In this document: positions 8,077-29,350 of the stretch, one piece after another
Layout of the letters: each line of letters opens with the position of its first letter
Position numbering within the stretch: the first letter of the stretch is position 1
NCBI GenBank assembly: GCA_951406725.2
Contig: OX597832.1
Location: 13,826,001-13,890,000, forward strand
Length of the DNA stretch: 64,000 bases
Origin: Octopus vulgaris
Taxonomy: Eukaryota
Direction of reading: 5' to 3'
Program-made: the position numbers and the translations under genes
The notes under the pieces: generated by a model
What the model was told of the DNA's origin: nothing
The model's input: the letters and a program-made list of their open reading frames with translations, nothing else
Databases searched by the model: none

Positions 8077-8117
8077 TATATATACATAAATATATATATA
8101 TATATATATACTTTGAT

Positions 8118-8224
8118 ACTTTGATAGGTTTCGGCCATTATTGGCCCAGGCCATGTCTAACTTAATAGCACCACCTGGTGAAGTCTTTCAAGTCAGAATT
8201 TGGGCACTATGGCCCACTCAAGTG

Positions 8225-8226
<2 letters not shown>
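8118..8226 (-). mobile_element. 3' terminal fragment of a CR1-group LINE
   Basis: The reverse complement (ccaggtggtgctattaagttagacatggcctgggccaa) matches the 3' end of the CR1 fragment at 21250-21300. Confidence 0.6.
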
Positions 8227-8287
<61 letters not shown>

Positions 8288-8289
<2 letters not shown>

Positions 8290-8908
8290 GAAATATTAAA
8301 ATTACTAAGTCTCTCTAAAAGAGAACAACGGCAGCGTTCCCGGAAAATATTAGTTATCGCCATACTAATATGGCATTCTTATAAAAATAAGAATAAAGCT
8401 GTCCGCTTATTAGCTCCATGAGGCCATCGCCTTAAGTTAGCTATTTGATACACAAACTGTATCCATATAACCTTTGAACATGGAGCTAATAAGCGGACAG
8501 CTTTATTCTTATTTTTATAAGAATGCCATATTAGTATGGCGATAACTAATATTTTCCGGGAACGCTGCCGTTGTTCTCTTTTAGAGAGACTTAGTAATTG
8601 TAATATTTCTAATATTGAAAACAAGTGGATGTATTCCACCGAAGCTAGGTAAATAAAACCTTTGAACAGAGATTGTCAGAAGCGACACCTACTGGTCTGG
8701 CTACGCTGCATTGAAAAGGGGCAATACCCCGAAACGCGTCTGTAGCTGGCGGCCAAGTAGTGTGGAGCGACTGACCTCCCTTGTTCAAAGGTTATATGGA
8801 TACAGTTTGTGTATCAAATAGCTAACTTAAGGCGATGGCCTCATGGAGCTAATAAGCGGACAGCTTTATTCTTATTTTTATAAGAATGCCATATTAGTAT
8901 GGCGATAA

Positions 8909-8915
<7 letters not shown>
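8288..8915 (+). mobile_element. Retrozyme-like / non-autonomous Penelope-like element (363-bp unit, partial tandem copy, inverted copy)
   Basis: 8842-8915 directly repeats 8479-8552 (period 363). 8288-8420 is the reverse complement of 8479-8611 (1 mismatch) and 8347-8480 of 8782-8915. Contains a hammerhead, has no coding capacity and is flanked by (TA)n. Confidence 0.75.
8705..8746 (+). ncRNA. Type I hammerhead ribozyme, U3-A8 core variant
   Basis: Stem I GCTGCA/TGTAGC; core TTGAAAA; stem II GGGG-CAATA-CCCC; GAAA; palindromic stem III ACGCGT; GUC cleavage triplet, predicted cut after 8740. Confidence 0.8.
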
Positions 8916-10320
<1,405 letters not shown>

Positions 10321-10502
10321 TGATTGATTGATTGATTGATTGATTGATTCCATCCCAGCCTATGAGCTGTGGCCATGCTGGGGCACCGCCATTTGGTGTT
10401 GCTACTTGGTTTTACTTCATGGGGGCTTTCTAGCAACTGCTATTTGGTGCATGAGAGATCGATGCAGCTGCCCTCATCTGCCCCTCCTGCCGTGAAGTTG
10501 GT

Positions 10503-13500
10503 TCATCTGGGACACCATGACAGGAAGAGATCCAGCTTCATTTTAAAGACATCTGTATCCACCCCATGCAGGTCTCTCAGGTTCTTCGGGAGGATATTGA
10601 AGAGCTGTGGGCCTCGGAAGCCCAGGCTATCACAGAATCTTGTCCTACATCTTGATGGCAGGTTTGGAGTCCTAGGCACCACGCAGTGGCGCCCAGTTCT
10701 GGCATTTGTGTAACTCTCGATGCCAAAGTTCAGGACACTTCCCTCCAGGATCTTCCAGATGTATATTATGGCATATCTTTCCCGCCTACGCTCCAGGGAG
10801 TATAATTTTAATCTCTTGAGTCTTTCCCAGTAGCTTACATTCTGCATAGAGGCTATCTTCTTTGTGTAGCTTCGTTGGATCGCCTCAAGTTCTGTGATCA
10901 ACTTGACACTGGATGGTGACCACAGCTGAGAGCAATAGTCAAAGTGGCCCAGGACAAGCGTCTTCCAGAGGACCATCATGGTTTCTTGTTCTCTTGTTCT
11001 AAAGGTTCTAAGAATCCAGCCAGCCAGCCGTCTACATTTCACTGTCAGTTTAGCAACATGTACATGAAAGGTCGCGTCATCACTCATGTGAATACCCAGG
11101 TCACGCACTGATTGTGCCTCTGGGATTGCAATCCCTCCGGGTCCAGTGTATTCATTGGGTATTGCATTCAGTTTTGCATGCTGATAGTATAAAGCTTGAA
11201 ACTTTCCAGCATTGAACTGCATGCTATTCTTTTCAGCCCACTTGTATATTTCGTCCAGCTCACATTGCAGGTTTTTAGTGTCCTCAGGGTTCTGTATTGC
11301 CTGTGAAACTTTTGTATCATCTGCATAACTTGTGATCGTGGATCTCTGCGTGGCTGAGGGCATGTCTGAGAGGGCCATTATGAACAGTAGTGGTCCCAAA
11401 ACAGTGCCCTGTGGAACACCACTCATTATTTGCGTGTTAATGGAAGTGGCCCCATTGGCTACTACCACCTGACTTCTATTCTTCAGAAAGTCGTGAAGCC
11501 ATTCTCCTAGTTTTCCAACTATGCCAAGATCACGCAACCTGTGACATATCATTCCGTGATCGACTTTATCGAAGGCCTTTGCGAAGTCGAGATATATGAC
11601 TTCCACATTTGAGTGGTTGAGCAGTTGTTTCAGCACCCAGTCATAGTGCTGCAGGAGCTGAGTTAAGCAGCTTCTTCCTGGTCGGAAACCATGTTGGGTG
11701 TCAGGCAGCAAGTCATTTTCTTCAAGGAAGGTGATTAGTTTCCTTCTGACTATTCGTTCCATGACCTTGCTGATGTGTGAGGTCAGAGAGATAGGTCTGT
11801 AGTTCTTTGCCTCCGCTCTGCTACCTCCTTTATGAATAGGGCATATTTTACCTTCCTTCAGTCCCCTTGGAAGTTTGCCAGCTGCAAGGAAGCTCTTAAA
11901 GAGGGACTGCAGTGGTCTTGCTAAGACTCTCTTACATACTTTTAGGAGGATTGCCGGGAATCCATCGGGGCCAGTAGCTGAGTCTATTTTCATTTCATCT
12001 ATAGCCTTTATTACATCGTCTTCCTTTATCTCGATGTAACTTATCGTCGCCGCCTCTGATTCTATATCTGCAGTGGTAAAGAAGTCAGTTGGATTGCTGA
12101 TTTGGAAATGCCCAAGGGGTGGAGTGAAAACACTCTTGAATTGTTCATTCAGTATTTCACTTACCCTCATTGGTTTTCCTGTGAGTGTGCCATCCTTTTC
12201 AAGGAGTGGCCCTATCCTACAGTGCACTGTGGCCGTTTCTTTGGCATACCTGTAGAAAGCTCTGGGGTTAGTTTTTATGTTGTCTATAGCCCAGGCTTCT
12301 TTGTCTGCTCTTTCCTTCTCATGGGAAAGTTGCAGACAATTTTCAATTTCCAACAGTTTTATTTTCAGGCGGGACTTTTCACTACTTTCAATTTGTTTGT
12401 TTAGGCGATTTGAAATTTTTGTACGCCGTCTCATTAAAATTTTCCTCTCTCTGGGGATTTTGTTCTTGTGTACAGTGGCCTTTCTCTCTGGGACACATTT
12501 GTAGCATATGGCTTGCATTACAGACATGAATTGTTGAAGTATCATGTCGATGTCCGGCGAGGAGAGACATTCAGGCCAGTTTTGTTTGAGGATCTCTTTC
12601 TCAATTTGTTTCCAGTTTGCCTTATTGAAGTTCAAGCTGGAAAGATTCTGAGGGTTTCTTGTAGGCTGCATGTCCGTGCTCTCTTTTGGCCCGTACATGG
12701 TCAGCTCTACCATGTTGTGATCCGAGAGTAGTGTCGGTGTCACTTTCACATTATGGATGAGATCCATATTATTTGTGAAGCAGAGATCCAGTGTGTTACC
12801 TGCTCTGGTTGGTTGCAGTACTACTTGCTCCATGTACAGGGTGTTGGTGAGGTTCAGGAGGGACCTCGCCTGTCCACGTTCACATCTTGTCATTCCTGGG
12901 AGAGAAAGGCCCTCGGGCCATCTGACATTCGGTAGATTGAAGTCTCCCATGAGAAGTACACTTATGTGTTGTTCTAATGTGGTTAGAACTTCTTCTATTT
13001 TTAAAAGGCAGTCCTCGAACTTGCCCATATGACTTGGGGCATCTGGAGGGCGATATGTAGCACACACAACTACATCAAGTTGCCTTATGTGTACAATTAG
13101 TGTGTCACACACCGAGTTTGAGTATGACAAAAGGACCTGGGGTGTGAGGTCCCCACGGATGTACATAGCAACTCCTCCATGACTCCTTTCTTTCCTGTCG
13201 GTCCGTAGTACAACATACTGTGGTATGTGTAATTCCGCATCTGCTATGTCCGGTTTCAGATGCGTTTCTGTGAGTGCTATGCATAAGGCTTGATTGCATG
13301 CGACAAAGTCTCTCAGGAACGGGACTTTTGTCCTGTTACTGTGTGTTAGTAAACCTCTGATGTTCAGTAGGAGCATCGAGGTGAGGTGTATGCTGTTGCC
13401 GGCGTTGTCCACCCTGGGTCCATCTGCTGTGGCGGTCTTGTGAACTGTGGGCAGTTCCATCTGCGAGCCTGAGCCTGATGGAGCCAGGTTAGCTGCTGTA

Positions 13501-13520
13501 CAATCTTTTGTGCCATGCAC
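10503..13520 (-). CDS. LINE ORF2: APE endonuclease plus reverse transcriptase (1005 aa)
   Basis: APE motifs LNIRGL, ALTETHL, YRPP, GDFN, LDL, SDH; RT motifs NYRPISL, QHGFR, YLDFAKAFDKV, GVPQGTVLGPLLF, YADD, DLG; CR1-type C-terminus LERRRER. The track start is GTG and the first ATG is at 13460. Confidence 0.93.
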   Translation of the reverse strand: MHGTKDCTAANLAPSGSGSQMELPTVHKTATADGPRVDNAGNSIHLTSMLLLNIRGLLTHSNRTKVPFLRDFVACNQALCIALTETHLKPDIADAELHIPQYVVLRTDRKERSHGGVAMYIRGDLTPQVLLSYSNSVCDTLIVHIRQLDVVVCATYRPPDAPSHMGKFEDCLLKIEEVLTTLEQHISVLLMGDFNLPNVRWPEGLSLPGMTRCERGQARSLLNLTNTLYMEQVVLQPTRAGNTLDLCFTNNMDLIHNVKVTPTLLSDHNMVELTMYGPKESTDMQPTRNPQNLSSLNFNKANWKQIEKEILKQNWPECLSSPDIDMILQQFMSVMQAICYKCVPERKATVHKNKIPRERKILMRRRTKISNRLNKQIESSEKSRLKIKLLEIENCLQLSHEKERADKEAWAIDNIKTNPRAFYRYAKETATVHCRIGPLLEKDGTLTGKPMRVSEILNEQFKSVFTPPLGHFQISNPTDFFTTADIESEAATISYIEIKEDDVIKAIDEMKIDSATGPDGFPAILLKVCKRVLARPLQSLFKSFLAAGKLPRGLKEGKICPIHKGGSRAEAKNYRPISLTSHISKVMERIVRRKLITFLEENDLLPDTQHGFRPGRSCLTQLLQHYDWVLKQLLNHSNVEVIYLDFAKAFDKVDHGMICHRLRDLGIVGKLGEWLHDFLKNRSQVVVANGATSINTQIMSGVPQGTVLGPLLFIMALSDMPSATQRSTITSYADDTKVSQAIQNPEDTKNLQCELDEIYKWAEKNSMQFNAGKFQALYYQHAKLNAIPNEYTGPGGIAIPEAQSVRDLGIHMSDDATFHVHVAKLTVKCRRLAGWILRTFRTREQETMMVLWKTLVLGHFDYCSQLWSPSSVKLITELEAIQRSYTKKIASMQNVSYWERLKRLKLYSLERRRERYAIIYIWKILEGSVLNFGIESYTNARTGRHCVVPRTPNLPSRCRTRFCDSLGFRGPQLFNILPKNLRDLHGVDTDVFKMKLDLFLSWCPR

Positions 13521-13864
13521 AAAAAAGATTCCTGCTCAGCAGCTGCCCTTTCAACAACACGTTGGTGGTTTGTGGTACGCACCACATCTGCGTACCTCCG
13601 TTTTAGGGCAGGTGATGCCTGGTCCATCCCATTTCCTTTCGGTGGTTGGTTTCTGTGGCAGGGTCCCGGATGTGCAAAGCGGCAGCCTGCACCTTCCTCT
13701 CCATGCCGGCAGGCACCTTTCAGGTAGAACCTACATACCCGTGTGCGCTGCTTGTTTCCATCCTTTTTGGCATATGGACCGTTAGGTTTGCCTCTGTCCC
13801 TGGCTGCCTTGTCCCTTGGCTTTGTCTGAGTTTTAGCTTCAGTTTTTCCTCTTTTTTGGCCTCT
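13364..13864 (-). CDS. LINE ORF1, C-terminal portion with CCCH zinc finger
   Basis: Open frame of 167 codons containing [22 protein letters not shown] (C-x7-C-x8-C-x3-H, 13735-13670); overlaps ORF2 in a different frame. Confidence 0.65.
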
Positions 13865-27439: not shown

Positions 27440-28345
27440 GTATCAACCTCAATCTACATTTTTTAACCATTGGTTTCGTGATTGTTATTTAAATCTTCGC
27501 ATGTTTTACAAGATTTTCTAGCGATTTGTGTTGCATTTTTGCGCTTGATGAATTTATTTGTTTTCAAAATGTTTTTCATTATTTGGTTTCTAGTCATCAT
27601 AGGGCGATTTTTTAATGCTACAGGATCCTAGGATTGTGAGAATATATATATATACAGTAGTGTATTGTGATGAAGTGAGGTGTTACATTTTGTTGCCCTT
27701 TGTATCTTAATGGTTAATTTCGTAATACGCTTAATTTCATCGTCAACAAGTAAGGGTGGATATTGTCTTTCAGATGGTGTTGTTCTGAGTTCCTGAAGGC
27801 GAAGATCTCTGATATTTCTATCAATCACTATTTTGAAAATCAATTTTGATAAATTGAAGGGGATATTTCTTTTGATATGTTTCGCGTAGCATGAGCTATA
27901 CAGTAGACAATGAGCCTAGTCTGTTGCTATATGAGAGATGTGACTTACCATTTGGTTTTTGATTTTTTTTATCCTAATACCGGAGAAAAGCAGCTGTGTT
28001 CTGGTATATTACATTGTGAATTGAATTATTAGTATTGAGTTAAAATTCCAAAAGTTTATCAGTGATCTCATTCCTAAGGATAAACCAGTCATCAAGATAA
28101 CTTTCCCAGTTCTTTCTCATACAATGGTGAAATGGACATCCATATGTTTTCAGGGCCACTTCATATATGGTAAATTCAAAATAATCCACTATTAGGTTCG
28201 CACGAACAGGGGTTGCATTCTTTCCCATCGCAATTCCACATTACTGAAGATCGCAGGCGTCATCAAATTGGAAATCATTTTCCTGAAGCATAAATTATAA
28301 AGTATAGATAATGAGTTCTGAAACTACTTCGGGGTACTTTTCGAA
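27440..28345 (-). mobile_element. Penelope-like element, RT region (degenerate)
   Basis: GIAMGKNATPVRANLIVDYFE, YLDDWFIL, RDLRLQELRT...RQYPPLLVDDEIKR. Confidence 0.75.
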
Positions 28346-28349
28346 TAAA

Positions 28350-29350
28350 CCGTAGCACCACGCATCATCACAATACATTACTGTGTATATCAACTCACCG
28401 CCCTAAAATCAATGAGGCATACAACAAAACAGTATAAAATCTACCTATGGTCACTAGAAATCCAATAACGAACAACATACTGAAAACATAAATTCATCAA
28501 ATGCAAAATGCAACACAAAACACTAAAATGTCTTTTAACAAATACGACGTTTTGCACAACAACCAAGAAACCAACGCTTCAAAATGTGGACGTCCAAACT
28601 GTGGAACATGCTCCTACCTACTTGAAGGCCCGCAATTGCTATTCAAACAACGAGAAAGGTTCATAATTAAAACCAGCTTCACGTGTGTTTCCAGCAATGT
28701 AATTTATGTTATAACATGCTTAGGTTGTGGACATAACTATATAGGACATATATAACTATATATTACGTAAAAAAACAGATCTGTTTATGGCAATAGATAC
28801 AGATTCCATTGAGTGATCACATAGTGAGATATGCCGGTAATATCCAACAAAACGTCACCGTCTTCCCCAATTGCCAGTGCAAAAAATGAATATGTATACA
28901 AGAACGTTTAAATGAAGGAAATTTGTTCATCAAAAAGTACAGAATACAACAGAATAGGAACGCATAACCAACGTTCATCTCACTATATATTTTAATTAAT
29001 GATCACGTACCTATCACTTTAAATATTTCTTTTCACTACTTATGCTTTTGAATTTTTGTCTATATTTATCTCCTCCCTGAGAAAGGAAATATTACCTCCC
29101 CTGTCCTCAATATTAACGATCACCAAATACCTACCTTAGATTTTTCTCGTTGAATCATTCATTCATAAAATTCTTCACATAGTACATACACTAAAATCTT
29201 CTTCAGAATATACGATACTACAATAATTTCAATGTCATGAGTAGCGAAAGCGAAACCGGTCGACAAAAAGAATATAAAAATATTAAAGTGATATATCAAT
29301 ACTATGTAAAAGTGTGTAAAGTGTGTATTTTCCATATTTTATGCTTTATG
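28350..29350 (+). mobile_element. Penelope-like element, GIY-YIG endonuclease region and 3' tail
   Basis: KCGRPNCGTCSYL...FTCVSSNVIYVITCLGCGHNYIG, the PLE GIY-YIG signature; hammerhead in the tail. Confidence 0.85.
29233..29265 (+). ncRNA. Minimal type I hammerhead ribozyme, A3-U8 core variant
   Basis: TGTC-ATGAGTA-GC(GAAA)GC-GAA-ACCGGT-C-GACA; located 3' of a Penelope GIY-YIG region, as expected for PLE hammerheads. Confidence 0.6.

Follow-up and report, generated by a model that had tools for sequence, protein, structure and literature searches.

The insertion in the window

The window (the whole stretch of 64,000 nucleotides of Octopus vulgaris DNA that was analysed; contig OX597832.1, positions 13,826,001 to 13,890,000) contains two arms of a 363-bp non-coding unit joined head to head between (TA)n tracts (Table 1). 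Unit positions are numbered from u1 = 8479. The unit has a GC content of 41% and its folding beats 100 of 100 shuffles on either strand (z-scores -6.5 and -6.35).

The preliminary description, which proposed a young retrozyme copy, was reproduced in several points. The tandem overlap has a spacing of 363 bp, 8479-8552 being repeated as 8842-8915 with no mismatch; the unit has no open frame of 100 or more amino acids; and (TA)n is present on both sides, at 8227-8286 and from 8912 onwards. The reverse complement of 8288-8480 indeed pairs with 8782-8841 and then with 8479-8611, with one mismatch in 193 positions. However, the left edge of the inverted copy lies at 8284, four bases further out, and the added bases contain a second mismatch. 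This outer edge is the fixed long end of the family described below, and 8479, rather than being a unit boundary, is a chance 5' truncation point specific to this copy. Three letters of the forward unit (8600, 8612, 8749) are private to the window copy. Repetitive sequence also makes up the left flank (8110-8226), of which the first 71 bases recur unchanged beside a further family member (L063).

Table 1. Features of the two-armed insertion and its flanks (window coordinates)
Feature	Position	Strand	Remarks
Inverted arm	8284..8480	-	0.55 unit; outer end long (tailed); inner end = 8782
Forward arm	8479..8915	+	1.2 units (363 bp each); short end outside, at 8915
Head-to-head junction	8479..8480	.	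2-base overlap common to both arms
63-nt "tail"	8553..8615	+	from short end (after 8552 = 8915) to long end (after 8615)
Candidate minimal type I hammerhead	8705..8746	+	predicted cut 8740/8741
Long hairpin with hammerhead at tip	8657..8793	+	closing helix 8657-8668/8782-8793
Degenerate hammerhead-like motif	8615..8651	+	U3-A8 box, 5-bp stem; stem I out of register
Left (TA)n target tract	8227..8283	.
Right (TA)n-rich target tract	8916..10321	.

The candidate hammerhead

The cleavage site proposed in the preliminary description agrees with the fold, but the core is UUGAAAA (U3-A8) instead of CUGANGA. Stem I is formed by 8705-8710 and 8741-8746, the U3-A8 core occupies 8711-8717, and stem II pairs 8718-8721 with 8727-8730. 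They are followed by GAAA (8731-8734), a palindrome (8734-8739) and C17 at 8740, with GUC preceding the predicted cut. These letters agree with the definition of a minimal type I hammerhead, namely boxes N3UGANN8A and GAAA, a Watson-Crick pair between positions 3 and 8, and NUH ahead of the cut. The active fold of the window copy lies 1.1 kcal/mol above the minimum. As helix III is palindromic, cleavage after 8740 would be expected in a dimer. The core CUGANGA (CTGANGA) is absent from 8288-8915, so that the motif lacks the canonical C3-G8 pair, and an Rfam scan of the window yielded no match at the gathering score and no hammerhead at E-values up to 10. Many minimal hammerhead variants were reportedly described by Lunse et al., and may include the present motif. 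An alternative that treats the core as a new CUGCAUUGA insertion variant was abandoned, as covariation between subfamilies gave the U3-A8 register.

Among 104 motifs, distinct per locus, 103 have the core UUGANAA, although in some of the sample most of these letters were prescribed by the pattern used for searching. The palindrome has the forms ACGCGU (50 motifs), ACAUGU (38) and ACUAGU (3), and each of these three forms pairs with itself. Covariation was analysed in 36 aligned modules chosen for diversity from 62, junction copies excluded. Overall 98.3% of cells are paired (96-99% in helices I and II), and five pairs have two-sided changes. The palindrome centre is AU in 23 rows, GC in 12 and UA in one; compensatory changes, which represent few independent events, convert the first pair of stem II from G-C to A-U and a stem I pair from G-U to G-C. 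The number of two-sided cells exceeds that in all 500 shuffles, but the count of two-sided pairs is not above shuffles (278/500), and the two-sided changes mainly divide two or three subfamilies. The ribozyme fold is kept between subfamilies that are about 20% apart. Judged by this covariation the motif is real, and the element is predicted to carry a non-canonical minimal type I hammerhead of the Penelope type. U3-A8 cores are known in Penelope elements of Schistosoma, and dimer-type minimal hammerheads of low activity have been described for Penelope-like elements (PMC4209133). Self-cutting by minimal hammerheads is often weak, and eight of nine Xenopus dimers failed to cleave (bioRxiv 10.64898/2026.07.22.740005).

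Two further motifs were observed. The degenerate one at 8615-8651 begins exactly at the long end; its GAAA box is intact in older subfamilies and lost in the youngest, and it is probably a relic hammerhead. An older, unrelated family of non-coding repeats (L216, L226, L227, L230, L233, L236, L241) contains a U3-A8 hammerhead-like motif with the same palindromes, near position 1500 in these 3-kb loci.

A multi-copy family

The unit belongs to a multi-copy family. Searching the 2.8-Gb genome with a 170-base query turned up 1,101 candidates, and the best 40 of these are 98-100% identical, in agreement with the young age proposed at the outset. The hammerhead pattern has 1,942 matches in the genome (6 for the reversed control), and a tighter version 1,802 (control 0). 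For a 24-mer located close to the short end there are 3,052 exact matches (control 0). As 100 listed of the 3,052 24-mer matches occupy 52 places, the family size is estimated at about 1,500 insertions. The youngest subfamily has units of 363 bp, another one, about 95% alike, has units of 362 bp, and older ones are about 80% alike; over the loci the unit length is 360-363 bp. The name "viroid-like", which would imply replication from RNA to RNA, ribozymes in both polarities and independence from a DNA form, has no support here: in the window the hammerhead motif occurs on the + strand only, and there are thousands of genomic DNA copies.

Anatomy of the insertions

We collected 102 independent loci: 22 with the 170-base query, 20 with the hammerhead pattern, 40 with this pattern on the largest contig, and 20 with the 24-mer. 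Duplicates of the same insertion were removed (8 of 30 from the 170-base query set and 10 of 30 from the pattern set).

The outer ends are fixed. In the first 82 loci, 128 of 151 arms stop at u66-77 (short end) or u128-138 (long end), typically at u74 and u137, that is, 63 nt apart, and TA-rich sequence lies beyond 119 of these 128 arms. Thus the units are not freely permuted, as the term "circularly permuted" in the preliminary description would suggest; variation is confined to the inner ends. The two ends are inferred to be a pair of reverse-transcription start sites by analogy with the system of PMC11167929, where the spacing of two internal RNA start sites corresponds to the genomic tail.

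Head-to-head pairs were found 76 times in the 102 loci, locally duplicated insertions being counted once. Eighteen pairs with one or both ends elsewhere were set aside, and 56 of the remaining 58 combine a long end with a short one (p = 6e-15 against 50:50); one pair is long+long and one short+short. No tail-to-tail pairs occur among 82 loci. Overlaps at the inner junctions are mostly 1-6 bases. Target duplications of 12-14 bases, which may include microhomology, were seen at five loci outside plain (TA)n; at (TA)n they are hidden. At two loci (L169, L170) whole two-armed insertions have been duplicated locally, 2.4 and 1.1 kb apart.

More than half of the arms (70/128) are longer than one unit and re-enter the same 363-bp register. 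Two exceed five units, the longest reaching 5.5, which bears out the earlier suggestion that cDNA was copied past one unit length. The predicted cut site is crossed at least once by 93 of the 128 arms, with two stops in 147 crossings, under the mean of 2.8% per 11 bases; so few stops fit a circle and an uncut RNA equally. Inner ends gather at u299-309 (8777-8787; 21/183), at the inner end of the helix closing the long hairpin. L1-style twin priming that ends in a collision on a single linear RNA was considered and rejected, as inner ends coincide with the start of the other arm in only 3/172 and 5/113 cases.

Uniformity of arms and arrays

At an A/T polymorphism at u71, both arms agree in all 22 loci of the youngest subfamily, the expectation for random pairs being 0.52; in the second subfamily, two of 13 loci are discordant. 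Such concordance could also arise if the sources were active in turn. For the youngest set, divergence amounts to 1.1% within arms, 1.1% between arms and 1.6% between loci. The equality of the first two values indicates that the arrays are as old as the insertions. Within a locus, common non-CpG alleles show no variation in 137 of 154 cases. Some alleles private to a locus are present in every unit (4/4 in both arms of L029, 4/4 in L129, and three alleles 5/5 in L067); overall, 16 locus-private alleles are shared and 120 are single. A homogeneity test of the older subfamilies was dropped, being confounded by gap placement.

The search for a helper and a parent element

The genome contains 6,136 GIY-YIG candidates, and among 150 that were scored 16 have an open frame of 781 amino acids. 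The encoded protein has reverse transcriptase and GIY-YIG domains and, ahead of the nuclease, a CX4CXXC motif that by the criterion of PMC8557442 points to Neptune or Nematis. In this family too, copies lie in (TA)n as partial tandems; they have a U3-A8 minimal hammerhead and two ends about 39 nt apart. At both two-armed loci examined (L096, L098) the forward arm is tailed and the inverted arm is tail-less. The family, seen at L092-L103 (e.g. L093, 2942-5287), has a long upstream region in which the reading frame is broken, and its 3' region contains tandem repeats rich in CCAAT-like and TGACGTC motifs.

This young autonomous family and the unit have no common sequence, and their tails differ (39 and 63 nt). 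Nor was any likeness to the unit observed in the 3' ends behind 30, 20 and 20 GIY-YIG loci (the first two sets overlap in part); in this limited sample no terminal sequence in common with the unit was found. A reading frame for reverse transcriptase and GIY-YIG nuclease, as expected in an autonomous Penelope-like element, is present neither in the unit nor in continuity with its 5' side in the 102 loci, and at none of these does a Penelope frame run in sense into the unit. Two pattern searches designed to exclude ordinary copies, each of which would have detected a lone parent junction in roughly one case out of four, gave 5 and 10 matches (the latter with 4 control matches) and no parent; all 15 proved to be truncations, deletions or secondary insertions. 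Examination of other U3-A8 motifs also revealed no parent element. Thus the class of the helper is inferred from insertion anatomy, and sequence does not pin down a particular family. PMC3846280 reports an absence of cross-mobilisation among Penelope families, which, like the missing helper, counts against mobilisation in trans.

Several other candidates were rejected. Match pairs 6.6 kb apart (two) and 5.3 kb apart (one), considered as parent ends, reflect coincidence or segmental duplication, and a relative near a Penelope frame (L049/L061) proved to be an independent insertion that points the other way. In L083 (position 1145) the 3' side of an arm is fused to a Penelope coding piece with GIY-YIG in sense, and in L075 (911/1839) an arm is joined on its 3' side to an N-terminal Penelope piece in antisense, duplicated in inverted form. 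Both fusions look like rearrangements and not parents. The window itself contains decayed Penelope-like reverse transcriptase and GIY-YIG pieces on opposite strands (27649-28955) and, between TA tracts, an intact 1,010-aa frame on the - strand (10503-13535) with endonuclease and reverse transcriptase domains, a LINE-type element.

Sequencing runs

By sampled words the stretch was detected in 20 of 24 listed sequencing runs, with six organism labels and from eight studies; none of the 20 is on record as RNA. Contigs of four of the 24 runs, with two organism labels, were considered; evidence of this type is blind to ends, strand, level and the distinction between circle and tandem. The join 8915->8553 is bridged by contigs from one public run of DNA size. 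Contigs of three presumed-RNA runs span every one of the 28 bins of the unit as well as the tandem join; in two of these runs the cut site is bridged too.

A splice-donor-like signal at 8649 and branch-like and acceptor-like signals up to 8790 lie on either side of the hammerhead hairpin and are conserved between subfamilies. No joint skipping 8649-8790 was found in the contigs of the four runs, contigs being prone to drop rare forms, and the conserved letters of this segment have a further explanation in the helices. Clusters of T>C and A>G changes at 8693-8712 and 8823-8880 were noticed in single low-depth contigs of presumed-RNA runs, one of which crosses an inverted joint; A-to-I editing of a double strand formed by the two arms would fit them.

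Proposed mechanism and alternatives

Very probably, the family is a non-autonomous Penelope-like retroelement of the non-LTR retrozyme type, moved in trans by a Penelope-like reverse transcriptase-endonuclease. Mobilisation by a Penelope reverse transcriptase, as suggested in the preliminary description, is supported by the fixed tail ends, the inverted arm and the TA targeting, although no Penelope element related to the unit was found among the loci sampled. A tail at one end only is a frequent hallmark of Penelope elements (PMC8557442, PMC3846280), and a Penelope-like protein, modelled as a dimer, nicks and extends both strands of AT-rich DNA (PMC11167929). Under this interpretation a tandem transcript would be produced, and a dimer of the Penelope protein would nick both (TA)n strands some 12-14 bases apart. 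Each free 3' end would then prime reverse transcription at a different internal start, after 8552 or after 8615, the templates having a common source and probably being one molecule of RNA. Both enzymes would pass the hammerhead site, often repeatedly, before dissociating at random points, among which the base of the long hairpin is a favoured place to stall; finally, the two cDNA ends would be joined head to head. The tandem units would be created during insertion. This requires that, at least occasionally, one unit is read repeatedly, since the arrays stay long and uniform; the template could be an RNA circle, formed by hammerhead cutting and ligation, or the enzyme could jump from end to end.

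The main alternative concerns the template. The same element and helper may use an uncut linear multimer generated by read-through from host promoters, the hammerhead being a passenger or serving another stage, so that no circle is involved. We give this reading a little less than an even chance, and the same holds for an RNA circle as the usual template. Read-through from a host promoter would explain why contigs of the three presumed-RNA runs extend from the element into the flank with loose ends, and an uncut template agrees with arms that so commonly cross the cut site and with inner ends that disregard it. Hammerhead cleavage is dispensable for insertion in vitro: hammerhead mutants of the anole element insert normally, and no RNA reads end at its cut (PMC11167929). 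On the other hand, linear copying can only shorten arrays and leave mosaics, yet there are arms of 5.5 units and private alleles in all units of an array; also, the ribozyme fold is preserved across divergent subfamilies. The circle is the simplest step that provides repeated reading, template jumping being the alternative, and most insertions may come from an uncut linear multimer; a 363-nt circular RNA is a plausible product of the unit. One specific version seems to us rather unlikely, though far from negligible. A 363-nt self-cleaving circle would be recruited by its shape, without any likeness to its helper; a Penelope dimer would load at two sites, each subunit being primed by one strand of the staggered (TA)n cut, and both would run round the circle simultaneously. 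If so, the combination of one long and one short end would be the footprint of a general Penelope mechanism for tandem and inverted insertions, and the 363-nt unit a minimal substrate for proving it.

The remaining explanations deny either the element or its mode of insertion. It is improbable that the copies are 5'-truncated pLTR pieces of an overlooked autonomous Penelope family and the unit no element of its own. Truncated Penelope copies dominate many genomes (PMC4209133), and only 150 of the 6,136 GIY-YIG candidates were scored, in addition to the low sensitivity of the exclusion searches. However, none of the 102 loci leads in sense from a Penelope frame into the unit, the exceptions from the exclusion searches have the other explanations given above, and arms longer than one unit in the same 363-bp register (70/128) are impossible for the pLTR of a long element; the condition named in the preliminary description, that all other copies are such pLTRs, does not describe the family. 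Still less credible is a satellite-like repeat that acquired its tandem and inverted copies at the DNA level, by unequal crossing-over or slippage, after single insertions. Such a process has been proposed for the arrays of vertebrate retrozymes (bioRxiv 10.64898/2026.07.22.740005), and whole insertions were duplicated locally at L169 and L170; but the arrays here are short and dispersed, their outer ends are fixed and comprise a long and a short one, divergence within arms of the youngest set is not below that between arms, and there are target duplications. Finally, the long (TA)n tracts on both sides could favour an assembly chimera, a concern raised at the outset. We consider its chance vanishingly small: the same anatomy with different inner breakpoints recurs at 56 independent loci, the join is bridged by contigs, and the two arms of the window copy differ at two letters, so the structure is neither accidental nor chimeric.

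Comparison with known systems

This kind of element is already in print (PMC7229834; bioRxiv 10.64898/2026.07.22.740005), and the class is not new. The family has a non-coding tandem unit in the range of about 170-400 bp, a candidate hammerhead in each unit and target duplications of more than 4 bp, as expected of non-LTR retrozymes. The metazoan non-LTR retrozymes of coral, mussel and axolotl (PMC7229834) are similar in their 350-390 bp non-coding tandem unit with GC content below 45%, one type I hammerhead per unit with a palindromic helix III, strong self-pairing, and coexistence with autonomous Penelope-like elements. Their hammerhead is canonical, whereas that of the present unit is minimal and of U3-A8 type, and the present insertions lie in (TA)n and have two arms that meet head to head and stop at fixed tail sites; the words "inverted" and "microsatellite" do not occur in the main text of PMC7229834. 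Accumulation as small circular RNA is a further trait expected of non-LTR retrozymes, and for the present unit such an RNA is plausible. Vertebrate retrozymes (Li, Clavereau and Pollet, bioRxiv 10.64898/2026.07.22.740005) are likewise tandem hammerhead units proposed to hijack the Penelope machinery, and the octopus family fits their interpretation as non-autonomous Penelope derivatives. There, however, the link to Penelope is likeness to pLTRs and the arrays are ascribed to local amplification, whereas here the link is insertion anatomy, with no related pLTR found, and the arrays appear to be born at insertion.

Endonuclease-positive Penelope-like elements (Penelope/Poseidon, Neptune, Nematis; PMC8557442, PMC3846280, PMC11167929) have partial tandems, an inverted 5'-truncated copy, a tail at one end, AT/TA targets with a duplication of about 10 bases or slightly more, and a minimal hammerhead. 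The present unit differs in the absence of a reading frame, in a tail of 63 nt compared with the usual 30-40, and in several full units per arm. The non-autonomous Chlamys elements, e.g. MRC1 of Chlamydomonas, are also non-coding and of Penelope type, with pLTRs and multicopy head-to-tail insertions (PMC8557442); unlike the present unit, they usually have 3' sequence in common with an autonomous family, and their clade mostly lacks hammerheads. In Schistosoma mansoni, Cercyon resembles the unit in covariation of the U3-A8 core and has dual motifs on opposite strands, 100-700 bp apart (PMC4209133). Its motifs are mostly single, heterogeneous and bound to truncated elements, with a longer stem II, and a uniform 363-bp tandem unit is not described in the accessible part of that paper. 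The octopus repeat annotation of PMC13282606 lists 31 recently active Penelope-like families, and its accessible text does not mention ribozymes. In the papers searched, neither a cephalopod retrozyme or hammerhead family nor the one-long/one-short rule as a mechanism was found; the family may already be contained in Repbase, Dfam, the library of PMC13282606 or the supplements of the papers cited.

The family bears on the way in which Penelope-like elements come to have partial tandems, an inverted copy and a one-sided tail, and on the function of their hammerhead. The in vitro studies revealed two internal starts and two nicked strands but left them unlinked; in the present family the ends are paired. 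An estimated 1,500 short, nearly identical insertions allow one to count end pairing, arm haplotypes and stops at the cut site. Earlier, the mobilisation of retrozyme-type repeats by Penelope was based on co-occurrence and pLTR likeness; the octopus family adds evidence at the level of individual insertions.
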